64,000 nt of DNA, from assembly GCA_003514005.1 (NCBI GenBank), contig DOSJ01000004.1, positions 101,533 through 165,532 of the forward strand, given 5' to 3'. The notes under the pieces are model-generated. The model searched no databases, was not told the origin of the DNA, and was given only the letters and a program-made list of their open reading frames with translations. The stretch comes from Candidatus Falkowbacteria bacterium. GTDB lineage: Bacteria; Patescibacteriota; Patescibacteriia; Patescibacteriales; UBA12075. Within the stretch, counting starts at the first letter, position 1; every line of letters starts with the position of its first letter. The position numbers were made by a program, and so were the translations under genes. Shown piece by piece: positions 16,328 to 59,463 of this stretch.

Positions 16328-18025
16328 ATGGAACATGCATTAATTTACTGCCGAGTCTCAACCGAGGAACAGGCCGAGGACGGCCACCACTCCCTTGCGA
16401 CCCAGCTCAAGCTCTGCAAACGAGCGATCGAGGAAAGTAACAAATTCAAACTGATAGATGACGGTGTTTTTGAAGACCCCGGACGATCAGCCACCAACAT
16501 GAACCGCCCCGGACTGCAAGACATGCTACTTAAAATCCAAGACGACAAAACAATCAGAGCAGTATTTATTCAAGACACTGACCGACTTGCCAGAAACGCT
16601 CTTGATCACATGCAGATCAAGGCGATTATGAAAAAGCATGATGTTGAACTTTTTTCTGTCTCCCAGCCGGGCATTACCGATAGCCCCGAGGGAAACTTTA
16701 TGGACTTGGTGATTGCCGGTGTGAACCAACTCCAATCCCAAATCACTTCCAGAAAAACTCTAAAAAGTCTTGAGCAGAAATTCTGGGAGGGTTGGTGGCC
16801 GACCGGTGTGGCTGTCGGATATTTAAATGCTGGCGAACCAGACGATGAGAAAAAGAGAATTATTATCGTAGACGAGGAACGAGCCCCACTTATTCAAGAA
16901 GCCTTTAAAATGTATGTGACCGGAGATTATTCGGTCTTTGAAGTTCGCGATGCTTTATACAAAAAAGGTTTTAGAACTCACGCCGATAAACGGCTCGCTC
17001 ACAGCAAGATGATTGAGATATTAAAAAATCCTTTTTACTACGGCGAGATGAGGTGGCGAGGATTAGTTAACACCGGAAAACATAAACCGCTTATAGATAA
17101 AGATTTATGGGAACGAGTCCAACTAGTTATGGCCGAACACAATAGATATGCCTGTCGACGGCAAAAATTCAATTTCATTCTGCGAGGCCTGACCTTTTGT
17201 GCCAACTGCGGTCAAAGATACACCGCCGAACATCATCCTAAGAAAAACAAATCTTATTACCATTGCAACCGATCTGGCGATCAGATTAAATGCCAAGATA
17301 AGTATGTGGAAGTTTGGGATATAGAACAGCAAGTTGCCAACTTGTTCAAGTACATAGAATTCACTCCCAATTTTACCGACAGACTGGTGACCAAGATTGA
17401 AAAGATTTACAGCGGTCGCAAAGAAGTGATTAATAAAGATAAGAAAGCCCTGAATACTCAAAAGATGATGTTTGAAAAGAAACGGGATACAGCCGAGGAA
17501 AAACTTTTTGCCGGATTAATCACTGATGACGACTTCTCCAGAGTAAAAGTTAAAATCAAAGAACAGCTCGAGCTATTGCAAGACGAATTGTATGCCCAAG
17601 ATAAAAAACTCAATATGAGAATCGATGAACTGCAAGATATGCTCTTATTCGTCCGCAATGCTTACGAAGCCTATACCAAATCACCGGATGAAATGAAAAG
17701 ACTATTCCTTGGCCTTTACTGGGAGAGATTTGAAGTAGCCAACAAAAAAATCCAAACCGTAATACCGTCACCGATCATAAGGGGGCTGATGCAAGCCGAG
17801 GACATGGTCTTTACCAAGAAATACAAAGAAATTACCGGTCCGAGAATAATAACCGACTTGGCCGTAGAATTTACACCATTCATAGCCGGCAAATCAAAAT
17901 CCAAGATTGCCCCTAAAACGCAAAAATCCCGACAAATTGCCGAGATTCCTGCAATGATATCCAATCAACCAAACTCGGTTATATTAGATACCGTTTGGGG
18001 TGAGGTACGGGAATCGAACCCGTAA
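16328..18025 (+). CDS. large serine recombinase (integrase)
   Basis: N-terminal resolvase catalytic domain ALIYCRVSTEEQ and DRLARN, recombinase domain, Zn-ribbon CANCGQRYTAEHH...YYHCN...C, and coiled-coil. The last ~10 codons are antisense to tRNA-His. Confidence 0.9.
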   Translation: MEHALIYCRVSTEEQAEDGHHSLATQLKLCKRAIEESNKFKLIDDGVFEDPGRSATNMNRPGLQDMLLKIQDDKTIRAVFIQDTDRLARNALDHMQIKAIMKKHDVELFSVSQPGITDSPEGNFMDLVIAGVNQLQSQITSRKTLKSLEQKFWEGWWPTGVAVGYLNAGEPDDEKKRIIIVDEERAPLIQEAFKMYVTGDYSVFEVRDALYKKGFRTHADKRLAHSKMIEILKNPFYYGEMRWRGLVNTGKHKPLIDKDLWERVQLVMAEHNRYACRRQKFNFILRGLTFCANCGQRYTAEHHPKKNKSYYHCNRSGDQIKCQDKYVEVWDIEQQVANLFKYIEFTPNFTDRLVTKIEKIYSGRKEVINKDKKALNTQKMMFEKKRDTAEEKLFAGLITDDDFSRVKVKIKEQLELLQDELYAQDKKLNMRIDELQDMLLFVRNAYEAYTKSPDEMKRLFLGLYWERFEVANKKIQTVIPSPIIRGLMQAEDMVFTKKYKEITGPRIITDLAVEFTPFIAGKSKSKIAPKTQKSRQIAEIPAMISNQPNSVILDTVWGEVRESNP

Positions 18026-18071
18026 CAGGAGCGCCACAAGCTCATGTGATAACCGTTTCACCAACCTCACC
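17996..18071 (-). tRNA. tRNA-His (GTG), intact, with encoded G-1 and CCA
   Basis: Hand-folded: G-1 + GTGAGGT / TG / GTGA-AACGGTTA-TCAC / A / TGAGC-TTGTGGC-GCTCC / TGTT / ACGGG-TTCGATT-CCCGT / ACCTCAC / C / CCA. Confidence 0.9.
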
Positions 18072-18079
18072 ATAATAAT

Positions 18080-18550
18080 TTAAATTTTAATATTGTGTAT
18101 ATGTACAAGATGATGGCAATTCCAGCATAGCCAAACCAAATTTTCAATATCGTTGTTTTTTCTATTAACATCTTTATGATGAACTAATAAAATTCTTTTA
18201 TCTTGAATGCCACATTTTGCGCATATTTGTTTTTGTCCGCTTTTTTTAAGTATATCTCTATAGACATTTAATCCTCCTTTCCATAATTTATGTTTTGGTC
18301 CGGAATATATTGTGTTTCTCCATTTAGATTGACAGGATTTATTACAAAAAAACTTTCCACTTTTTGAATTTTTTAATTCTTTTGGCATTTTCCAGATTTC
18401 TTTCCCGCATACTTCGCAGTGTTCGAATTTTCCTTTTTTTTGAATTACAGTTCGACATTCCACTGAACAACATTTACTCCAGCCCCTGGCTAAATGTGAA
18501 GGTTTCGCGTAAAACTCTTTTTTGCAATTTTTACAAATTACTATAGGCAT
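18080..18550 (-). CDS. HNH endonuclease with N-terminal zinc ribbons
   Basis: HHKDVNRKNNDIENLVWLCWNCHHLVH (HNH motif), and several CxxC pairs upstream. Confidence 0.85.
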   Translation of the reverse strand: MPIVICKNCKKEFYAKPSHLARGWSKCCSVECRTVIQKKGKFEHCEVCGKEIWKMPKELKNSKSGKFFCNKSCQSKWRNTIYSGPKHKLWKGGLNVYRDILKKSGQKQICAKCGIQDKRILLVHHKDVNRKNNDIENLVWLCWNCHHLVHIHNIKI

Positions 18551-18598
18551 AATGACATCATATTATTAGCGAAATAAAATGTAAATATACAAATGAAA

Positions 18599-18637
18599 TC
18601 CACAACCCGATGTTCTAACCGCTGAACTATGGCCACC
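18599..18637 (-). pseudogene. truncated tRNA-His: 5' half only (G-1 through anticodon loop)
   Basis: G + GTGGCCA / TA / GTTC-AGCGGTTA-GAAC / A / TCGGG-TTGTGGA, then an unrelated AT-rich sequence where CCCGA should follow. The sequence differs from the intact tRNA-His at 17996..18071 except in the anticodon loop. Confidence 0.75.
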
Positions 18638-18692
18638 ATGATTTTAATTTTTAGTTTTTAAAAATTAAGAATCAAGAATTGAAAATAATCTA

Positions 18693-19235
18693 TTAAATTG
18701 TGTAGAAATAAACCTTCTCACCAATCCCGCTTACTTCGATTACTTTGTCGGGTTTTTTGTTTGGGAGTAGAAAACTGTAGCTGATTACTTTTGTGCCTAG
18801 TCGGCATTCTTTTATTATTTTTGGTTCTAGGGTTTTCATTACCCCGACGTTTAGAAAACAATACAAGAGATCGGCTTTGCTAAAATCATATTTCAGAAAA
18901 TCAGTTTTTACTAGCTCGAGTTTGCTTTTGTGTATTTTATTTTTTAATTTGGCAATCAGTAGTGGCCAAATATAAAACTCTAAACCAATCAATTGTGCTT
19001 TGGGAAAAAATTGTCTAAGTGCGCGTAAAAATTTTGCTTCACCACAACCGATTTCCAAAACAACTGCATCTTGTTTTATATCTATTTCTTTTATTATTTT
19101 CTCTATGATTGATTTTCTCGTTGAGATAAAAGGGGCGTGGTTTTTGACTAATACATTAAATAAAACATAGATGAAATAAAGCATTATTATCATCAATGTG
19201 AAAATCACAAAATATTGCCAGATCAGTATTAGCAT
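18693..19235 (-). CDS. class I SAM-dependent methyltransferase with N-terminal TM helix
   Basis: Motif [12 protein letters not shown], 180 aa, hydrophobic N-terminus. Confidence 0.7.
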
Positions 19236-19236
19236 G

Positions 19237-19310
19237 TGTACCCGACAGGGTTCGAACCTGTGACCTACAGCTTAGAAGGCTGTCGCTCTATCCAGCTGAG
19301 CTACGGGTAC
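19237..19310 (-). tRNA. tRNA-Arg (TCT)
   Basis: Hand-folded: GTACCCG / TA / GCTC-AGCTGGATA-GAGC / G / ACAGC-CTTCTAA-GCTGT / AGGTC / ACAGG-TTCGAAC-CCTGT / CGGGTAC / A. Confidence 0.9.
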
Positions 19311-19529: not shown

Positions 19530-21842
19530 ATGTTTAAACAAAAATTGGAAAATTTAAATAATTTAAAAAAACAGGACAGTAGCGATGTTTTTATTGAAAA
19601 AAACTTGGAGGAAGATAATAAAAAAAAGGAAATTCGGCAACAAATTTTTATAGAATTAAAGAACAATTATGTTGATGAAAATGAAAACCTAAGAAGAGAC
19701 AATGCTTTATATTGTGGAATTGATGTTGGTGAATATTATAAACCGATTATTAGCGATAAAATAGCGATATTATGGAATAAGTTATTAGATGACTATAATA
19801 TTGATGAATGGGATGAAGATAACAATAACATTCAGAATTTTTTTGGCAATATTGTTTTGGACAAAGATTTAGTCTGTTTGTTAAAAAAAAATTTTATTGA
19901 CAAAAAGGCTGATTTGAAAGATAGAATTATTTGCACAAATGTTATTCGAGATATTGCCAATAGTCTAGTGGAAAATGATCAAGAACATGTTGCCACTGAG
20001 TATGTTAATATGCTGGAAGACTTAGAAAAATCTAAAGATGTCCCTTATATTTTAAAAATATATTTAGAAAGAGTTGTTTCTGAGGCAAAGCAACTAATCG
20101 AATCAACTTATTTTGACAGTTATGACGATATTGAATTATCAAAAAATACTGATGAAAGGATGAAAATAATAAATGATTTTCATGATAATAAATATGACTG
20201 CATAAACATGGTTTTTGATGATAAAATGAAAATGATTTTAAGCGAAGCAGTTTACAGAGAGGGATATGGCGATATTTTTAGGCCAATCGGTAAGATGATT
20301 GATATCGACGGAAAAGAAGATTGGGATGGTGATTATATAGTTTCTCAGGCGGCACCGGGTAGAATTGGCATTTATTCTTTAAATGGAAATATGGTAGGGT
20401 GGAAAAAGGAAGATGAAATAAAAGAGGAAGTTGAAATTGACGGACAAAAAACATTTTATGATTTTGCGATAAATCAGAATGATGTATTTTTTATGAATCT
20501 GCTGACTAGCTTGCCTTTTCGTTCGGCGTTAAAAGACAGGATTGGTTTTGACATCGCTGGTTTGAGTCCGGAATATCAAAAAAGTTTTTTGATCTATATA
20601 AAGAATAAAACAGAAGATGAGATTGATGAATTGATAAGATTTATTAAAAAAAGTAATAATGAAAGTTGTGCAGTGAATCGAGTTAAGTCTTTTTTATCTC
20701 TTGAATCGGGTGAATTATCCGGAGAGGAGATTTTATTAATTAGTGAAAGCTTGAAAGATGATCAAGATATTGCGAATGGAATTTTTGCGGCATATGCTAA
20801 ACTGTCGGATCAGGCTGATATTTCAAGGGAGCAAATTAACGAATTTTTTAAAGTTGAGAAAGAGTTTAAAACCGAAGACGTAGATAAAGTATCCCGCTCT
20901 ATTTTAAATAAGGCGAATTCTCTTTTGGTTAATTATGTTAAGCAAATTAAAAAAGGAGAAGAAATAAGCACAAAAGAACTTTTGGATATTATAGAAAACT
21001 ATAAAGAAGACGCGGTTGTTTTTTCTTCTATTTTTAAAACGGCGCACGAGAAAGAAGATGTTATTAGCTTTGAAGAACTACGAGGCGTAGATTACAAAAC
21101 TTCATTTTCGGTAGAATTATCGAGCGAAGAGAAGAAGATGATTTTAGACGTCGTGAGGCTGAATTATCCGGACAAGGAACAGCAGGAAGATATTTTGCAG
21201 AAAATTGAAGAATCGTTTAAAAACGATAAGACCAAATGGCATCTTTTAACTAGACAGGGTGAGCAGGAAAAATCATTGGTGTCATGTTTGCGATTTGATG
21301 AACTGGACGAAAAGAATGTGTACGCGGCAACTTTCAATGTCGGCACTGCTTATCGCGGGTCAAAATTGGGAGACGCTATGTTTGATCGTGTCATGACCGA
21401 GGTTGCACAAAATAAAAAAATCCATGCCATCGCCGAGATGGATAAAAGCGTTAGCGATTATTATATAAACAAGGGCGGTTTTAATGCCAAAGGGATAAAA
21501 ACTAATGAAAAAACCCAAAGAAAGTATTATGAAATAGAGAGATTTGACCCGGAAAATGAGTTTTATGGAACCAAGAGAATCACAAGCAACAATGATTTGC
21601 TTACATATTATAAGGAAGGCGCTAAACCCGATGACCTTGTTCGGATGCAGAAATATATTTTGGTAAAAAAGGAAGACCTTAACAAAGCGTTTAATCAAAG
21701 AGAAATTGAATATATTTTAAATAATGGTTATTTATTAACCAGAACTATAAAAAATAAGCCGGTAAACGGTAGAAATGATTCATATTTGGTTTTTGAGAAA
21801 AAGGCCATGAAGGCAAGGGATGATCAAAAACAAGCGGCCTAA
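19530..21842 (+). CDS. large acidic/Lys-rich protein (770 aa) with C-terminal GNAT-like acetyltransferase motif
   Basis: Long uninterrupted ORF in very AT-rich DNA. Near residue 600, AATFNVGTAYRGSKLGDAMFDRVMTEV resembles GNAT motif A (R-x-x-G-x-G/A). The rest is unassigned. Confidence 0.55.
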   Translation: MFKQKLENLNNLKKQDSSDVFIEKNLEEDNKKKEIRQQIFIELKNNYVDENENLRRDNALYCGIDVGEYYKPIISDKIAILWNKLLDDYNIDEWDEDNNNIQNFFGNIVLDKDLVCLLKKNFIDKKADLKDRIICTNVIRDIANSLVENDQEHVATEYVNMLEDLEKSKDVPYILKIYLERVVSEAKQLIESTYFDSYDDIELSKNTDERMKIINDFHDNKYDCINMVFDDKMKMILSEAVYREGYGDIFRPIGKMIDIDGKEDWDGDYIVSQAAPGRIGIYSLNGNMVGWKKEDEIKEEVEIDGQKTFYDFAINQNDVFFMNLLTSLPFRSALKDRIGFDIAGLSPEYQKSFLIYIKNKTEDEIDELIRFIKKSNNESCAVNRVKSFLSLESGELSGEEILLISESLKDDQDIANGIFAAYAKLSDQADISREQINEFFKVEKEFKTEDVDKVSRSILNKANSLLVNYVKQIKKGEEISTKELLDIIENYKEDAVVFSSIFKTAHEKEDVISFEELRGVDYKTSFSVELSSEEKKMILDVVRLNYPDKEQQEDILQKIEESFKNDKTKWHLLTRQGEQEKSLVSCLRFDELDEKNVYAATFNVGTAYRGSKLGDAMFDRVMTEVAQNKKIHAIAEMDKSVSDYYINKGGFNAKGIKTNEKTQRKYYEIERFDPENEFYGTKRITSNNDLLTYYKEGAKPDDLVRMQKYILVKKEDLNKAFNQREIEYILNNGYLLTRTIKNKPVNGRNDSYLVFEKKAMKARDDQKQAA

Positions 21843-22582
21843 GTTACCCAAATAAATTCAAAAAGCGCCTTATGCATTGAATAGATATTTTCGTCTTCGA
21901 TCAAAGTACCGGTTAGATTTTTTTCTGTCATTGTGATATAGGCGATTTTGTTATCGTAAATATGAAGACTGGTTGAGAATGGGGTAATTTGCAAATTTAT
22001 CAGTTTTACATCGGTTAATTCGCTTGCGCTCGAAAAATGATTACGGGCGTAAGGCGAATCAAGGGCGAGAAGCCTTTTTTTAATACCTTTTTTGTTTCTT
22101 TTTGCCACGTATTCCTTGTTTATCTCTCTTAGATATTTATCAACCGCCTCAACATCGGCAATAGTTAGGATTTCAGTCTTTGCTGTAAGTGTGTCATTAA
22201 GAATTTTCCAAATCCCTTCCTCTCCCTCATAATACCTTACCCCCGGCTTGTTACTAAGCAAATTATAGGATGAAACCATATCTGGCAGGTAATTGTTAAA
22301 CAATTCCCTGTCTTTTTTTATTTGTCTTTCTTTTTGGTCAAAAAACTTTTCCATCTGCGCCGGGTGCCCGATGCGGAAATAGCTGATGGCGTTCGGCTTT
22401 TCTACCCGCTCAACAATATTTAAAACCACCATTTCCTCCAGATCTTTATAAACGATTGCTCTGGATTTTTTGATTTGCTTGGCAATTTCCGAGGCCTTGT
22501 CTTCTTTTTTATTGAATAAGTATTCCATTATGGCGGATTGAGTAGGGGTGAGGCCGGCTTTTTGGAAGATTTGTTTGTACAT
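21839..22582 (-). CDS. TrmB-family (winged HTH) transcriptional regulator
   Basis: The N-terminus GLTPTQSAIMEYLFNKKEDKASEIAKQIKKSRAIVYKDLEEMVVLNIVERV is a typical TrmB wHTH. 247 aa. Confidence 0.75.
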   Translation of the reverse strand: MYKQIFQKAGLTPTQSAIMEYLFNKKEDKASEIAKQIKKSRAIVYKDLEEMVVLNIVERVEKPNAISYFRIGHPAQMEKFFDQKERQIKKDRELFNNYLPDMVSSYNLLSNKPGVRYYEGEEGIWKILNDTLTAKTEILTIADVEAVDKYLREINKEYVAKRNKKGIKKRLLALDSPYARNHFSSASELTDVKLINLQITPFSTSLHIYDNKIAYITMTEKNLTGTLIEDENIYSMHKALFEFIWVT

Positions 22583-22590
22583 CTGGTTTT

Positions 22591-22675
22591 AAAAATTCTA
22601 AATTATAAGGTCTAATTTCTAATATTTTAAATCATTAATAGATTAGAAATTATAATTTAGATACTTAGAAATTAT
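22591..22675. repeat. hairpin repeat, family ttctaaattataa/gtctaatttctaa (copy 1 of 4, degenerate)
   Basis: Inverted arms aaattctaaattataaggtctaatttctaat / attagaaattataatttagatacttagaaatt. The same words occur at 27463, 48685 and 50478. Confidence 0.7.
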
Positions 22676-22737
22676 TTTTACAATCATTATCTAGAATAAT
22701 TATAGCATATCTATAAAAAATGTCAATATAAAAATTA

Positions 22738-22836
22738 GACAATATTGCATATGCAAATGCTTAATATATTGCAATATTGTCAACGTAATCACGGAAAATG
22801 ATATAAAATGCCTGGTAAAATACTTGACAATATTGC
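22738..22836. promoter_or_regulatory. three GACAATATTGC(A) operator-like boxes
   Basis: gacaatattgca 22738-22749, inverted copy tgcaatattgtc 22770-22781, and gacaatattgc 22826-22836 overlapping the -35 of the plus-strand promoter. They lie between the divergent TrmB gene and the non-coding locus. Confidence 0.5.
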
Positions 22837-22852
22837 TATTCTGTGATATACT
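22824..22852 (+). promoter_or_regulatory. near-consensus sigma70-type promoter
   Basis: TTGACA (22824-22829), 17-nt spacer ending TGa, TATACT (22847-22852). Confidence 0.6.
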
Positions 22853-22858
22853 GGTTAA

Positions 22859-23808
22859 TCAAGCTAAGAAACGGAGAATTTGTCAAATTGGTAAGAAGTT
22901 AAAAATTGCACATTAGAAAAAAAACAATATATTTCAAGAACTTATCGGCGGAGCTTTGAGTGGCGTAAATTATCGGAGAGAGAAAAGATGATTTCGTCCA
23001 AGCGAAACAGGTAAGGTTTTGGAATTACTAGCTAGAGATGCTTCTTTGGTCTCACGAGAGAAGAGAGCAAAGAAGAACTTTATCTGGTAAGGATACAGAT
23101 CATTACAATTTAATACTCTGGAGAGAGACAAGTGATTTTCGATTTTCGATTGGCGATTTTCGATTTAGTTTAACAGTGATTGGTTTCTCTTCATTAAATT
23201 AGTGAATAGAAATTGGTTGCTGTTTTTTAAAACTAAAAAATGATCAAAAATCTGAAGAGGAGAGAGATGCTTCCTTTTCTGAACTGCGGGTTTGCCCGTA
23301 GATTGGATAGGGAATGATAACAAAAATTATTCAGGGAAAGAAAATCATGTCAATCGTCCCAAAAGAATAATACAATATTCTCTTCAAATTTTTGTTCTTT
23401 TTAAAAAAATTAACTGCTTTGGGAAATTTCGCCAAAATGAAGTCTCGACCATGCTTGGAGAGTTCTTCCCCCGAAAAAATGCTTTGCATTCTCGGGGTAA
23501 AATTGGAGAGAGTAGATTTCTTGAAGTAATTATAACTAATCAAGTTCGACCGCGTAAAGATGCTGTGCATCCGCGCGGAAATGTGCCGAGCCCTGTGGGA
23601 TTTGTCTGGTTTCGTTTCGAACCGGAACTGATAAGTTCTGCAATTTTCAAGTAAGTGAGTGCATCTGTCCCGCGGAAACGCGAGGCAGGCCGCTGAAAGA
23701 AGGCTACGGACGATCGATATCTTATCAAAGAGATCGACTGCGCGTGAAGGATTGAACCCCCTTCGCGTTCAGAAATTTCTCTGGTAGAGAAAGAATTTTT
23801 TTAAACAA
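22859..23808 (+). ncRNA. ~950-nt promoter-to-terminator locus without a credible long ORF (micro-ORFs plus structured GC-rich 3' half); class unknown
   Basis: Bounded by the promoter at 22824 and the stem-loop/T-run at 23783-23808. Contains four GGAGAGAG boxes, covarying hairpins, a CGCG-GAAA-CGCG tetraloop hairpin (23671-23682) and a local GC content well above its surroundings. Confidence 0.4.
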
Positions 23809-23834
23809 AAAAACCTCCGTATTAGGCGGAGGTT
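23801..23834 (-). terminator. intrinsic terminator of the 88-aa gene
   Basis: aacctccg-tattagg-cggaggtt hairpin followed on the minus strand by a T-run (forward aaacaaaaaaa). Confidence 0.7.
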
Positions 23835-23848
23835 AAATAGTAAGGTAT

Positions 23849-24115
23849 TTATTTTTTGATGTTAACAGTATAAGGATTTAAACCAAGATGTACTTCGATA
23901 TTGGAAATGCGTTGTTCAAAGCGATCGTGGGCAGCCATGTTTGAAACGAAAGAATGTTCGATATTATCTAATTTATGCATGACCGCATCAACAGCCGACA
24001 AGACCGAGTCAAATTTTTGATTTAATTCATCCCTGGTTGCAAAATCTTTTAAGTCATCTTTTAATGCTATTTTATTGAATTGTTCTGGAGTAAGTGACAT
24101 ATATTTAATAATCAT
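23849..24115 (-). CDS. small coiled-coil protein (88 aa), hypothetical
   Basis: Track ORF with heptad-like composition and its own terminator. The start may be the internal MSLTPEQF. Confidence 0.5.
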   Translation of the reverse strand: MIIKYMSLTPEQFNKIALKDDLKDFATRDELNQKFDSVLSAVDAVMHKLDNIEHSFVSNMAAHDRFEQRISNIEVHLGLNPYTVNIKK

Positions 24116-24260
24116 TTTTTATAAATATAGTATAGCAACCAAACAATTATATTTCAATAGCGATTTTTATTAGGAATAATCAAATCAGTTGGAATATTTT
24201 TGCGGGGAAAGATTTTGCCCATAAAAATGTCCTAACTATTTTGGAGAGAGAAACTAGTCG

Positions 24261-24289
24261 TTGGATGGACTTCGACAATTGAATATACT
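24261..24289 (+). promoter_or_regulatory. putative promoter TTGGAT-N17-TATACT
   Basis: ttggat 24261-24266 and tatact 24284-24289. The same -10 hexamer occurs in the promoters at 22847 and 25228. Confidence 0.4.
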
Positions 24290-24299
24290 TATTGTTGAC

Positions 24300-24357
24300 T
24301 TTTAATCACCAATCAAAATTGTTTTTATATCAATGTAGTTTTGATTGGTGATTAAAA
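24300..24357 (+). promoter_or_regulatory. perfect 19-bp inverted repeat in the leader of the small-protein operon
   Basis: ttttaatcaccaatcaaaa (24300-24318) / ttttgattggtgattaaaa (24339-24357), with a 20-nt loop. Confidence 0.6.
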
Positions 24358-24406
24358 AACAAATAAGACCACGCTTCCGAGGGTTGATATCGGAGAGGGA
24401 GATGAA

Positions 24407-24616
24407 ATGAGAAAAAGTGATTTGAACTTTTCAGGAAATGAAACTAACGTCGTATCTGGAAAGGCGGTGAAAATCGTCAGCGATAAAGAAGGTAAATTTT
24501 TTGCTGTCGCAATATTGGGCGGCAGAGAATATTATCATCTTGTTGAAAAAAAAGATGGATGGGATGAAAGATTTTTACCTTCCCGGTATTTCGCTGAGGG
24601 AGGAATCAAAATTTAA
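24407..24616 (+). CDS. hypothetical small protein (69 aa)
   Basis: Track ORF preceded by GGAGAGGGAG 7 nt upstream of the ATG. Confidence 0.5.
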   Translation: MRKSDLNFSGNETNVVSGKAVKIVSDKEGKFFAVAILGGREYYHLVEKKDGWDERFLPSRYFAEGGIKI

Positions 24617-24626
24617 GGAGAAGAAA

Positions 24627-24929
24627 ATGATTGATATTTTTACTGTCGTTGATGATTCTGGCAGAATTACATTGGTGTCCCTGCCTTGTTCAGGAGAAGG
24701 ATATCGAGTGCATGTGTTCGCAGATGGTACATACGTGTGTGACGTTTGTGGTCATTGCGCAGGGACAAGCTTCATTCTCAACCGACACTGGTCGGTGGTT
24801 GGTGAAGCGAAGATTTATCTGAGAGGGAAGCTTCTCACAAAAAATCTGGTAGATAAATTCTTTGGACTGATACAGCCAAAGGATTTTGAGGTCATTTACG
24901 AAGATGAGGACGAGGACCATGAGAACTAA
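24627..24929 (+). CDS. hypothetical small Cys-rich protein (100 aa from MIDIFTVV; track start 24501 is probably too early)
   Basis: AAGGAGAAG SD 5 nt before the ATG at 24627. Contains CSGEG...CDVCGHC and an acidic tail EDEDEDHEN. Confidence 0.55.
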   Translation: MIDIFTVVDDSGRITLVSLPCSGEGYRVHVFADGTYVCDVCGHCAGTSFILNRHWSVVGEAKIYLRGKLLTKNLVDKFFGLIQPKDFEVIYEDEDEDHEN

Positions 24930-24981
24930 TTAGTTCTCGGGTTTAAGTAATCCTAAATAAATATTAAGGTTCAATTTTTTT

Positions 24982-25015
24982 GGAAGTTTTTTTAAAAAAC
25001 TTCCACTCTTTTTAG
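24982..25015 (+). terminator. intrinsic terminator
   Basis: ggaagttttt-ttaa-aaaaacttcc hairpin followed by actcttttt. Confidence 0.55.
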
Positions 25016-25159
25016 TCCGGCACAAAAATGGCGGCCTGAAAAAAGTGTGCATAAATAATTTTTCCCTCCATCAGGGCGGCCTGACACAAATAGTAATAGA
25101 TTCTCTCTCCCTATTGCTTAGTGTCACGCCTTCCTGATGGGGATATGAAAATAAAAAGA

Positions 25160-25233
25160 GTTTACAATTGGTTTACAATAAATTTAAACGTGGTTTACAA
25201 TCGGTTGACAATAATTAATAAATGCTTTATACT
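25160..25233 (+). promoter_or_regulatory. four phased GTT(T/G)ACAAT direct repeats merging into a TTGACA-N17-TATACT promoter
   Basis: Repeats at 25160, 25171, 25193 and 25204 (spacings 11, 22, 11 bp). The last one contains the -35 TTGACA 25205-25210, and the -10 TATACT is at 25228-25233. Confidence 0.6.
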
Positions 25234-25261
25234 GAATATATAAGTATTGTATTAGGCAGAT

Positions 25262-26302
25262 ATGTTGACAAAAGAAAAAATATTAAAAATAGTGGAAAAA
25301 AACGGGATATTAAAGACAAATGATATTGTCTTGACTTTTCGAGTGTCAAGACAATACGCAAATCGTCTGATAAAAGACTTGGTAATTGAGCGGAAATTAT
25401 TAAAAGTCGGGCTTGCTTCAAAGGCTATGTATGTCAGCCTGGGGTACGCCAAAAAACATCCGGAAATATTAAACTGTAAAATCACAAAAACTTTTGTTAA
25501 TAAAAATCTTGAAGAACATATTGTTTTAAACATAGTAGAATCCGAATTGCCATTGATTCTTAAACAAAAAGAAAATATTCGAAATATCTTTACTTTTGCG
25601 TTTTCAGAAATGCTGAATAACGCGATCGAACATTCAAGTTCTGCAAAAATTAAAATTGATGTTTTGTTTGCAGAAAAGATGTTCATTTTTACTATCGCTG
25701 ATTTTGGAGTAGGTGTGTTTCGGAATGTGATGAAAAAAAGAAATTTGAAATCCGAACTTGAAGCCATTCAAGATATTTTAAAGGGAAAAGTAACTACGAT
25801 GCCTGAATTGCATTCTGGTCAAGGTATATTTTTTACATCTCGTTCGGGTGATGAGTTTATTTTGGAAAGTTATGGTTATCGTTTGATTGTAAATAATCAA
25901 ATCAATGATGTATTTCTTGAGGAAATCAGTGGATCAAAAATGAAAAAAGGCACCAAGGTTACTTTTAAACTTTCAGTTGATTCAAAAAAGCATTTAAAAG
26001 AAATCTTTGATGAATTTTCTAATATTGATAAAGAAAACGAATTTGGTTTTGACAAAACCGAAATTAAAATTAAATTATATCTGAAAAGTGGAATTCATAT
26101 ATCGCGTTCGCAGGCAAGAAGGGTTTTATCCGGTCTTGAAAAGTTCAAAATTGTAGTTTTTGATTTTGACAAAGTTCCCATGATTGGACAGTCTTTTGCT
26201 GATGAAATTTTTCGAGTTTTTCAGAGTAAGCACCCAAAAATTCAGATTGAGGCAATAAATATGAATGAAGCGGTAAGATTTATGATTGACCGTGTTGAAT
26301 AA
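25262..26302 (+). CDS. wHTH + GHKL (SpoIIAB-like HATPase) + STAS-like DUF4325 domain protein
   Basis: N-terminal HTH (TNDIVLTFRVSRQYANRLIKDL). GHKL N-box FSEMLNNAIEHS, G1 DFGVGVF and G2 HSGQGIFF. The C-terminal ISRSQARRVLSGLEKFKIVVFDFDKVPMIGQSFADEIFRVF is typical of DUF4325. Confidence 0.8.
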   Translation: MLTKEKILKIVEKNGILKTNDIVLTFRVSRQYANRLIKDLVIERKLLKVGLASKAMYVSLGYAKKHPEILNCKITKTFVNKNLEEHIVLNIVESELPLILKQKENIRNIFTFAFSEMLNNAIEHSSSAKIKIDVLFAEKMFIFTIADFGVGVFRNVMKKRNLKSELEAIQDILKGKVTTMPELHSGQGIFFTSRSGDEFILESYGYRLIVNNQINDVFLEEISGSKMKKGTKVTFKLSVDSKKHLKEIFDEFSNIDKENEFGFDKTEIKIKLYLKSGIHISRSQARRVLSGLEKFKIVVFDFDKVPMIGQSFADEIFRVFQSKHPKIQIEAINMNEAVRFMIDRVE

Positions 26303-58501: not shown

Positions 58502-58599
58502 AAATATAGAAGTATTTTTACAAATTGACAAAATCAATTATTTATAATAAATTAAAGTCCTGAACATTCAAAATAGAATATTAAAAAAGGAGAGAGAAA

Positions 58600-59463
58600 A
58601 TGGAAAAAATTAAAAAATTGGTAAGCATTATTTTTGTATTTATGTTTTTTGTATCCGGACTTGCTTTTGCAGAGGATAAGATTCGAGTATTATTATCCGA
58701 GGGACAGCTTAAAAGCATAAGTGTCAAAAGAGTGAAGGATGTTGAGGTGCAAATTTCTTTCAGCGATGAATTATCGGGCTTGCATGAATATACTATAAAA
58801 GAAATTGTACAAAAACTTTTGATTGAAAAACAGCCGTTTTACTACAATGAAAGATTAAATACGCTAAGTAGTTTATTACCGCTTAGGATTAACCGGGAAT
58901 ATAGTTATAAAATATTTCTAGATCAGGAAAAGAATCTTATATATGGGGAAAAAATATTAAATGAACCCATTTCTGCATCTAAAATCTGGAGATGTTATAC
59001 AACGATGTTGCTATCATTATTTATTCTGGTACTGCCAATGATTTTTAAAATTACAATCCATTTTTATTCAAAAAATAAAGGATGGCTAAGCGTGTTTTTT
59101 GTTTCATTATTTTTGATTATGTTTGTTATTCAATTATGTATAGTGGGTGAATTTATAATGATTTTATTTTTAGCACAGATAGTTTTAATTGGCGCTTCAG
59201 TATTTATAAATGATGTATTTTTAGAAAAAATCAGCATAAGAAAATTTCCAGCAATTTTTGCCAGTACATTTTTGATGACAATTTCCGTTTTAGCAGGAAT
59301 TGTAGTACTGGTGAATATTCAAATTGCACAATCTATTAATTTTCTTCTAGTTCCGTATTTTATTTATTTTTTTATCACTTGCATATTGTTTTTTATTGTA
59401 TATTTCTTGGAAAAAAGAAAAACACAAACAATAAAATGCGATTTTCAATTTGATAGTAAATAA
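58600..59463 (+). CDS. membrane protein (287 aa): signal peptide, ~120-aa exposed domain, ~5 TM
   Basis: GGAGAGAG SD (58589-58596) 3 nt before the ATG. Signal-like N-terminus IIFVFMFFVSGLAFA. Confidence 0.6.
   Translation: MEKIKKLVSIIFVFMFFVSGLAFAEDKIRVLLSEGQLKSISVKRVKDVEVQISFSDELSGLHEYTIKEIVQKLLIEKQPFYYNERLNTLSSLLPLRINREYSYKIFLDQEKNLIYGEKILNEPISASKIWRCYTTMLLSLFILVLPMIFKITIHFYSKNKGWLSVFFVSLFLIMFVIQLCIVGEFIMILFLAQIVLIGASVFINDVFLEKISIRKFPAIFASTFLMTISVLAGIVVLVNIQIAQSINFLLVPYFIYFFITCILFFIVYFLEKRKTQTIKCDFQFDSK

Follow-up and report, generated by a model that had tools for sequence, protein, structure and literature searches.

A candidate family of structured non-coding RNA paired with a TrmBL2-like gene in Patescibacteria

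A gene of about 945 nucleotides (nt) occupies positions 22859-23802 on the plus strand of a 64,000-nt stretch of Candidatus Falkowbacteria DNA (assembly GCA_003514005.1, contig DOSJ01000004.1), hereafter the window, to which all coordinates refer. Comparative sequence analysis shows that its RNA product is conserved, that it covaries on the plus strand alone and that it is encoded head-to-head with a TrmBL2-like gene behind a conserved strong promoter. By the same kind of evidence the RNA is shown to be non-coding. It very probably belongs to a new family of structured non-coding RNA (ncRNA) paired with the TrmBL2-like gene, a family that is, as far as sampled, previously undescribed and, within the sampled loci, confined to Patescibacteria. 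The explanation that is narrowly favored here is a stand-alone, regulated and structured RNA that would act in trans by showing copies of an octamer, GGAGAGAG (the box), to a partner. Within that explanation, the use of the boxes as a binding platform is a tentative step.

Since the flanking genes carry consecutive NCBI locus tags (US83_C0003G0012 and G0013), the 1.27-kb gap between them (22583-23848) is unannotated. The proteins on either side are identical to proteins of Candidatus Falkowbacteria metagenome-assembled genomes (MAGs) from the Rifle aquifer, for example GW2011_GWE1_38_31. A first-pass annotation, made from the letters alone, had described a discrete promoter-to-terminator transcription unit on the plus strand, and this description is supported. 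The promoter at 22824-22852, TTGACA-N17-TG-n-TATACT, agrees with the consensus at 11 of 12 positions and has a TG ahead of the -10 element, giving a predicted start near 22859. The extended -10 (TGnTAnACT) promoter of the same type on the RNA strand aligns among homologs, and the pattern TTGACA-N16-18-(TG)nTAnnnT is found in 49 of 68 distinct loci. At the other end, the terminal hairpin and T-run exist as described and their coordinates need correction from 23783-23808 to 23776-23802, where UUUCUCU-GGU-AGAGAAA is followed by GAAUUUUUUU with its U7 tract. This terminator-like hairpin is absent from a consensus terminator scan because its stem is weak, with just two G-C pairs. On the 3' side the unit is bounded by a G+C-rich hairpin (23811-23834), the terminator of a convergent 88-amino acid (aa) gene (23849-24115, minus strand) that is the next gene past the RNA. 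The proposed GC-rich, structured 3' half is also borne out, with a GC content of 0.46-0.54 at 23500-23750 against 0.14-0.40 in the surroundings, and the CGCG-GAAA-CGCG hairpin at 23671-23682 lies where it was reported, within a variable hairpin of the 3' domain. Folded as 952 nt, the plus strand gives z = -5.5 relative to shuffles; the minus strand is far weaker at z = -2.6.

Homologs were sought in 160 loci encoding TrmB-like proteins, gathered from species-representative genomes and metagenomes and numbered here with the prefix L. Having been drawn via the protein, this sample is biased towards RNA beside that gene. The intergenic DNA of the window, used as a single nhmmer query, was enough to detect the counterpart region ahead of the TrmB homologs of L063, L008 and L005 (E about 5e-17), and an iterated profile went on to match 79 sources. 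All 93 locus matches of the profile fall directly upstream of the TrmB-like gene and on the opposite strand, and the same profile had 0 matches in a reversed database. In the window, the alignment with homologs runs end to end, from 22861 to 23805. A covariance model of 62 positions built on the 3' core, termed R1, matches a single site in the window (23725-23786, 64.4 bits, E = 1.5e-13) and sites in 75 loci, again upstream of and antisense to the TrmB-like gene; ten of these loci were outside model building (L163, L068, L074, L017, L064, L054, L020, L072, L139 and L136). Elsewhere in 1.2 Mb there are none, save two weak matches, one on the reverse strand over the strong L118 site and a second upstream in L083. 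Of the 117 loci whose upstream flank extends 1.5 kb or more, 66 have the 3' core, and 20 of the 51 that lack an R1 match have sense-strand boxes upstream of the TrmB-like gene.

The homologous RNAs range from about 330 to 1700 nt in length, and the distance between the TrmB-like start codon and the core is bimodal. Short forms, with a distance of 460-530 nt and an RNA of roughly 330-400 nt, have one 5' box and often a second box in a 3' hairpin. Long forms, to which the RNA of the window belongs, have a distance of approximately 730-1400 nt and three to six boxes. Host labels include Falkowbacteria, Moranbacteria, Magasanikbacteria, Kaiserbacteria, Paceibacterota and other Patescibacteria; such taxonomy labels are unreliable for MAGs, third-party assemblies especially. 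Some loci depart from the common layout. The core is present in tandem in L047 (2209-2272 and 2085-2145), while in L163 (6183-8000) some 1.8 kb separate it from the TrmB-like start codon and the surrounding 2.6 kb have hardly any called genes, implying an RNA of about 1.7 kb. Six further loci (L005, L086, L023, L037, L092 and L138) have four to six sense boxes and the 5' modules yet no R1 3' core, which suggests a variant subclass with another 3' end.

Compensatory changes were found in six helices: the 3' core, those of boxes 1, 2 and 3, an internal hairpin, and a helix termed Alt-1. Pair counts for the 3' core, box 2, box 3 and Alt-1 were run with slid-partner controls. The universal 3' core (23725-23786), assessed in 50 sequences, comprises 20 pairs that are 90.7% paired, 15 of them with compensatory changes (182 cells), compared with 35-52% for slid controls. 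In the family, its closing helix P1 reads GAGGAnAU / AUnUCCUC (23727-23734 / 23775-23782) and encloses an invariant internal loop, AUCGGCUG / CAGAAAU, together with a hairpin whose loop is YUUGAACMM. The window has AUCGaCUG / CAGAAAU as the internal loop and P2/P3 at 23738-23772, with the loop AUUGAACCC at 23751-23759. Pairs of the G.U type account for about 11% of the cells of the 3' core and are the commonest pair at several positions; because they become A.C mismatches on the other strand, the helices exist in plus-strand RNA alone.

Toward the 5' end, a motif UUUGAGUGGC (22955-22964; family consensus UUAGAGUGRC) stands just 5' of the box-1 hairpin (22967-22994), whose stem (22967-22974 / 22987-22994) presents GGAGAGAG at 22975-22982 in its loop. 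Seven pairs are predicted for this stem in homologs by RNAalifold, five with compensatory changes and two positions at which U.G is commonest; the stem of the window, AAAUUAUC/GAUGAUUU, was read from the sequence. The second unit (23100-23134) consists of a linker (ACAUUACAAUU..AAUA) and the box-2 hairpin, with GGAGAGAG at 23120-23127. Its stem in homologs, AAUAAUGG[AAGGAGAGAG]CCAUUAU, has seven pairs that are 88.6% paired, six of them compensatory (slid controls at most 65%), and its counterpart in the window (23114-23117 / 23131-23134) is short, weak and picked out by eye. The box-3 domain (23240-23399) is closed by a long-range helix (23240-23259 / 23380-23399) of 18 pairs, 88.5% paired and eight compensatory, with slid controls at no more than 64%; here GGAGAGAG (23259-23266) comes right after the 5' strand. 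Box 4 (23505-23512), common to short forms, opens the universal core. The homologous sequence is GGAGAGRGUYCAUYUCC, which could form a small hairpin, the pairs of which are invariant and hence give no covariation signal. Farther downstream is the internal hairpin (23606-23625, in a region spanning 23544-23625), for which RNAalifold predicts seven pairs in homologs, five with compensatory changes. The GCAAAC at its loop and an upstream GUUUGC change together, which, judged by eye, suggests a candidate pseudoknot: homologs show GUUUGC/GCAAAC, AUUUAC/GUAAAU, GUUUCC/GGAAAC and GUUUCG/CGAAAC, and the window has GUUCGA (23544-23549) / UCGAAC (23617-23622), in or at the hairpin. A whole-RNA consensus fold (MAFFT with RNAalifold) recovered part of the structure.

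The boxes that punctuate this fold are highly enriched. Exact copies of GGAGAGAG in the window lie at 22975, 23120, 23259, 23505, 24243, 25103 (minus strand) and 58589, with a variant, GGAGAGGG, at 24392. These are the positions that had been reported, the box ahead of the gene at 58600 being the one that starts at 58589. Seven copies compare with 0.64 expected, and none of 100 shuffles reached seven; six of the seven fall within 22975-25110 and four inside the RNA. Across the sampled loci, RNA regions totalling 144 kb hold 167 sense-strand copies and the other 879 kb hold 42, both strands counted in the latter, an enrichment of about 48-fold per strand. Copy number varies between homologs from one to six per RNA. 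As would be expected of a sponge RNA, boxes 1 and 2 are placed in the loops of covarying hairpins and box 3 at a helix end, directly after the 5' strand of the long-range helix. The complement, CUCUCUCC, was not found in the RNAs.

The divergent partner of the RNA is a TrmB-family, TrmBL2-like gene on the minus strand (21839-22582). Its product combines an N-terminal winged helix-turn-helix (wHTH), a long helix and a PLD-like C-terminal domain. The Pfam match to TrmB (PF01978) is marginal, at 26.0 bits against a cut-off of 25.6. The overall fold is TrmBL2-like: the AlphaFold model has a predicted local distance difference test (pLDDT) score of 90.6, and Foldseek aligns the full length with TrmBL2 (5bpd and 5box; E = 2e-13, about 265 columns). 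The C-terminal half matches the PLD fold nucleases NucT and Zucchini, and inspection of the protein by eye did not find an HxK(x)4D motif. In all, 96 homologs of the protein were found. Like archaeal TrmBL2, it carries the wHTH, long helix and PLD-like C-terminal domain over its full length. Unlike that protein, it is bacterial (Patescibacteria) and just 15-17% identical; furthermore, it is tied to one divergent RNA gene with palindromic sites, with no description as a chromatin protein of general function.

Those sites lie between the two genes. The TrmB-like gene has its own promoter, TTGACA-N16-TATAAT, at 22699-22726 on the minus strand, with 12 of 12 consensus positions. An inverted repeat, TGTCAA-N9-TAGACAA (22721-22742), is a putative operator; its left half is the -35 element of this promoter, and it precedes the -35 element of the RNA by 103 bp. 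A repeat of the TGTCA-N6-10-TGACA type occurs in 49 of 68 distinct loci, overlapping the TrmB-like -35 element and usually 98-102 bp before that of the RNA. A second inverted pair, ATTGCAATATTGTCAA (22768-22783) and TTGACAATATTGCTAT (22824-22839), is 16 nt long and 94% complementary, and its right arm overlaps the RNA -35 element. In some lineages (L075, L081 and L139) TTGACA-N3/4-TGTCAA palindromes sit on the RNA promoter itself, and the density of TTGACA/TGTCAA hexamers in the divergent region is 7.6 per kb as compared with 1.07 per kb overall. The first-pass annotation had linked the RNA to the adjacent TrmB-family gene and supposed that the regulator might control it. The pairing holds in at least 66 of 117 loci with repeats and promoter spacing conserved; control by the regulator is the part that stays conditional.

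Taken together, these features could be accommodated by the favored explanation as follows. The TrmBL2-like protein would bind the TGTCAA-N9-TTGACA and TTGACA-N3/4-TGTCAA repeats; since these overlap its own -35 element and that of the RNA, it would control both promoters. As the 3' end is transcribed, Alt-1 may hold the 5' strand of P1, leaving the 3' strand of P1 free for the terminator hairpin. Once the RNA is released or a signal arrives, P1 would form and the universal 3' core would be built. The mature RNA would then act in trans, with its one to six invariant single-stranded GGAGAGAG boxes as a multivalent platform. Candidate partners for the boxes are an RNA-binding protein, which may be the TrmBL2-like protein itself or a binder of AG repeats, and a pyrimidine-rich RNA. 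One lead for such a partner is Hfq of Bacillus subtilis, the distal face of which binds AG repeats (PMC3287200).

Several points weigh against this explanation. Transcription, the ends of the RNA and its abundance are all deduced from sequence features. Binding of the operator by the TrmBL2-like protein is assumed from the position and symmetry of the repeats, and the repeat of the window is imperfect, an extra base being inserted in its right half. In 31 of the 117 TrmB-homolog loci with enough flank, no 3' core and no box is seen. Four of the alignments used for helix tests were cut from the nhmmer profile alignment or anchored on words and so are not fully independent of the model. Because the boxes are invariant, covariation cannot reveal their pairing partner. 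Outside the RNA, just 7 of 42 copies of GGAGAGAG are at Shine-Dalgarno (SD) distance from an open reading frame (ORF) of at least 40 aa; with so few boxes there, titration of many mRNA targets in the manner of CsrB is not supported. Finally, evidence that the 3' strand of P1 serves as a terminator arm throughout the family is modest: it pairs with downstream sequence in 72% of 68 homologs versus 44% when the downstream sequence is shuffled, and the terminator itself is a weak one with two G-C pairs.

The 3' end invites a different reading, in which the RNA is a giant cis-acting leader, that is, a riboswitch or attenuator whose body senses a ligand, protein or RNA and whose P1 acts as the antiterminator for downstream cargo. 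Three overlapping conserved pairings speak for it. Alt-1 (23714-23737; 23714-23721 / 23730-23737) has eight pairs that are 84.4% paired, four of them compensatory, while slid controls reach at most 61%. In the family a GAnAUCGG segment, shared with P1, pairs with an upstream ACCGUnUC; changes run, for example, from CCG/CGG to UCG/CGA, CUG/CAG, CAG/CUG and CGG/CCG, and the variable n of GAnAUCGG covaries with both its P1 and its Alt-1 partners. Since 23730-23734, five nt of the P1 5' strand, are common to the two helices, Alt-1 and P1 are mutually exclusive. As in a riboswitch or attenuator, then, two exclusive conserved helices both covary and one of them overlaps the terminator. Alt-1, P1 and the terminator are predicted to form a 1:2 / 2:3 / 3:4 arrangement, which may be read as a co-transcriptional device that allows termination before the functional P1 forms or as a true read-through switch. 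A triple helix of the pyrimidine-purine-pyrimidine type, with Alt-1 and P1 on one purine strand, was rejected, as the Alt-1 strand is antiparallel and its covariation is of the Watson-Crick kind.

ON-type expression platforms are exemplified by the pbuE adenine riboswitch, and the 1:2 / 2:3 / 3:4 logic by the trp leader. The layout of the RNA resembles such platforms and attenuators in that the 3' strand of the closing helix P1 doubles as a terminator-like 5' arm, an upstream segment (Alt-1) competes for the P1 5' strand and both helices covary. It differs from them in that a long conserved RNA precedes the switch and no conserved gene follows. A same-strand ORF does start 6-130 nt past the RNA end in about half of the loci, which would suit a leader. 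However, the downstream genes are non-homologous between loci, close relatives excepted, and occur on either strand, the first being on the opposite strand in roughly half; no conserved same-strand gene was found downstream, and the idea of one that would make the RNA its leader was dropped. The gene that follows in the window is convergent and ends at a terminator of its own, and the conserved partner is the divergent TrmB-like gene rather than any downstream gene. To our knowledge, no riboswitch needs 300-1700 nt of conserved structure ahead of its platform. A cis-acting leader is judged unlikely, though it retains some weight. As a separate observation, a tail motif, (G)UUCUUUGAMAAnUGAAUAG / TTTGACAA, recurs past the terminal hairpin, 40-80 nt downstream of the 3' core in homologs, for which a terminal helix, a U-tract or a further TrmB half-site may be considered; an AGUUCnUU word akin to it is found near the 5' end of short forms.

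Somewhat less probable still is a dedicated pairing of the RNA with the TrmBL2-like protein as a feedback module, in which the boxes bind the protein or its PLD-like domain. At about 1 kb, the RNA would titrate, or act as a scaffold for, a DNA-binding protein of the chromatin type, which in turn would control the RNA promoter, and the 3' switch of Alt-1, P1 and terminator would set the yield of functional RNA. If true, this self-contained module of RNA and transcription factor would be a bacterial riboregulator of a new kind, peculiar to Patescibacteria with their reduced genomes.

A ribozyme or ligand-binding RNA, with the GGAGAGAG boxes and the internal loop of the 3' core as an active site or pocket, is improbable. 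Invariant single-stranded nucleotides do stand at helix junctions, in the boxes and in AUCGGCUG/CAGAAAU, and a pseudoknot is likely in a molecule of many domains with a universally conserved core of about 330 nt. On the other hand, searches with E up to 10 matched no Rfam ribozyme family, processing sites or substrates are not evident, and one 8-mer repeated up to six times would be unusual for an active site.

The reading first given to this locus, in which GGAGAGAG is the SD sequence of a dual-function RNA or of a polycistronic mRNA for micro-peptides, is now highly improbable and already largely refuted by the comparative evidence. The three micro-ORFs are present as described, so that three boxes of the window precede start codons with short ORFs; likewise GGAGAGAG stands ahead of the real gene at 58600, and the variant ahead of a 69-aa ORF at 24407. 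Nevertheless, across 32 distinct homologs an ATG, GTG or TTG lies 3-12 nt past GGAG at 36 of 92 boxes, for an estimated chance frequency of about 0.38, and the peptides that follow boxes, of 1-47 aa, are mutually unrelated. Every sense frame is interrupted by 8-34 stops in each of 28 distinct homologs, and the longest sense ORFs (31-120 aa) differ in position and frame. When six-frame peptides of the window were compared with homologs, no conserved translation emerged, the sole exception being a 15-aa antisense match with E = 0.004. That no credible long ORF is present holds true: the longest, of 120 aa with a TTG start (23292-23654), has no match in a Pfam search and no conserved translation. 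Both it and the micro-ORFs were accordingly rejected as genes. The structure points the same way, in that covarying stems enclose boxes 1 and 2 and the start codon (AUG or GUG) past box 1 simply belongs to the 3' arm of the box-1 stem.

Usage of SD sequences in the genome also disfavors translation. Only 2 of 42 long genes (at least 150 aa) in the window have GGAG upstream, and GGAGAGAG is not the usual SD sequence of the host. Since the other 40 lack a GGAG-type SD and have A/T-rich, AAAATATG-like upstream sequence, initiation in this Falkowbacteria genome is suggested to be mostly SD-independent. The related idea of GGAGAGAG as a general SD sequence or anti-SD sponge was demoted from leading idea, rather than rejected, in view of the same count of 2 in 42. 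By reasoning, with the host 16S rRNA outside the window, GGAGAGAG adds just 4 nt of complementarity to the canonical CCUCC tail.

An element acting at the level of DNA, such as a TrmBL2-like nucleation or architectural site or a replication-related region with an incidental transcript, or else a decayed protein gene, is as improbable as a micro-peptide mRNA. In its favor, TrmBL2 is a DNA-binding chromatin protein in archaea (5bpd and 5box descriptions), TTGACA/TGTCAA words cluster at the 5' side and TTTGACAA recurs at the 3' boundary in many homologs, but compensatory changes keep G.U-rich helices valid on one strand alone, a strong promoter is conserved at the 5' edge with a hairpin and U-tract at the 3' edge, and there is no protein remnant, the 120-aa ORF having neither a Pfam match nor conserved peptides.

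Comparison with known RNA classes supports the novelty of the family. With Rfam 15, no match was found in the locus when the whole window was searched at gathering thresholds, and none in 13 short-form homolog loci at the same thresholds; over 22500-25300, with E up to 10 and lax filters, only noise appeared (plant and animal microRNA and small nucleolar RNA models). The models for GOLLD, ROOL, OLE, raiA and HEARO, which the first-pass annotation had singled out, have no match even under the latter conditions. Its statement that the RNA is not RNase P, tmRNA, SRP, 6S or a T-box agrees with the lack of any match to the Rfam models or, for tmRNA, in ARAGORN. A resemblance to RNase P seen by eye (GAAAGUCC and CAGAA..GGCU, akin to CR-I and CR-V) was set aside, given that the two words are adjacent in short forms and not about 280 nt apart, and no model matches. 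Searches of the literature on ncRNA of Patescibacteria, Parcubacteria and the candidate phyla radiation (CPR), TrmB, the box motif, GOLLD and ROOL, and Hfq with AG repeats did not find this RNA described. There is no support for an origin in a phage or satellite, with no relatives of the RNA region in phage records (blastn) and no matches in viral contigs to an exact-pattern scan for the 3' core or a search for the TrmB-like protein.

In general character the RNA is closest to two groups of known molecules. It shares with OLE, GOLLD, ROOL and raiA a length between several hundred and about 1000 nt, numerous covarying helices, a probable pseudoknot and invariant blocks. As with these, it is a non-coding, stand-alone gene of a single lineage with its own promoter and a conserved neighboring protein gene; for OLE that neighbor is oapA. 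It differs from them in belonging to Patescibacteria without a match to their Rfam models, in being modular, with one to six domains each bearing the same GGAGAGAG octamer, and in its obligate head-to-head arrangement with a TrmBL2-like wHTH gene and lack of phage association (zero matches). With CsrB and RsmZ it has in common a repeated purine-rich, SD-like motif (GGA in those RNAs, GGAGAGAG here) in loops or single-stranded joints, a copy number that differs between relatives, and the status of a stand-alone regulated RNA gene. Unlike those RNAs, it has just one to six copies of a longer, invariant 8-mer, sets them in a large, conserved and probably pseudoknotted fold whose universal 3' core is free of boxes, and has a motif that is scarcely found elsewhere in the sampled genomes. 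The Rfam Csr/Rsm models have no match at the locus.

Large, intricately folded bacterial RNAs are rare, and RNase P, tmRNA, OLE, GOLLD, ROOL and raiA each opened new biology or brought structural surprises. A non-coding gene of about 1 kb in the tiny genomes of the Patescibacteria/CPR, a very large, mostly uncultured and poorly understood radiation, implies strong selection. Its architecture is tractable, consisting of one to six octamer modules, a universal 62-nt 3' core and two exclusive covarying helices, and its conserved protein partner is a bacterial relative of the archaeal chromatin protein TrmBL2. In practical terms, the covariance model together with the box signature can annotate a blank gap of 0.4-1.7 kb in many CPR genomes.

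Beyond the RNA, the copies of the box at 24243, 24392 (variant), 25103 and 58589 are near ORF starts. On the plus strand (24243-24399), GGAGAGAG at 24243-24250 is followed by GGAGAGGG at 24392-24399, the SD sequence of the 69-aa ORF. The region 24243-24929 thus presents a box and a near-perfect hairpin with 24-nt arms (24295-24362) ahead of two small ORFs, of 69 aa (24407-24616) and 100 aa (24627-24929). Both have a strong GGAG-type SD, unusual for this genome, and neither protein has a Pfam match. On the minus strand, a hairpin at 25068-25140, with 23-nt arms (25068-25090 / 25118-25140), has GGGAGAGAG (25103-25110) in its loop and so shows the box in the same manner as the large RNA. It is upstream of a 40-aa ORF (24930-25052) and divergent from a gene with helix-turn-helix, HATPase and DUF4325 domains (25262-26302). 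The promoter of that gene, TTGACA-N17-TATACT (25205-25233), is abutted and overlapped by a 33-nt tandem repeat in which GGTTTACAAT appears three times (25145-25233), which is probably an operator array.

On the other side of the locus, within 19530-22582, a 770-aa ORF without a Pfam match converges on the TrmB-like gene with a 4-nt overlap (21839-21842); a 773-aa ORF lies near the TrmB homolog P0027, on the opposite (upstream) side. Further out, at 16328-19310, a large serine recombinase gene (16328-18025, plus strand) overlaps tRNA-His (17996-18070, minus strand) with its 3' end, and past the tRNA come an HNH-like ORF (18080-18550), a methyltransferase (18693-19235) and tRNA-Arg (19236-19310). 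The segment could mark where an integrated element ends, some 3.5 kb from the TrmB-like gene.

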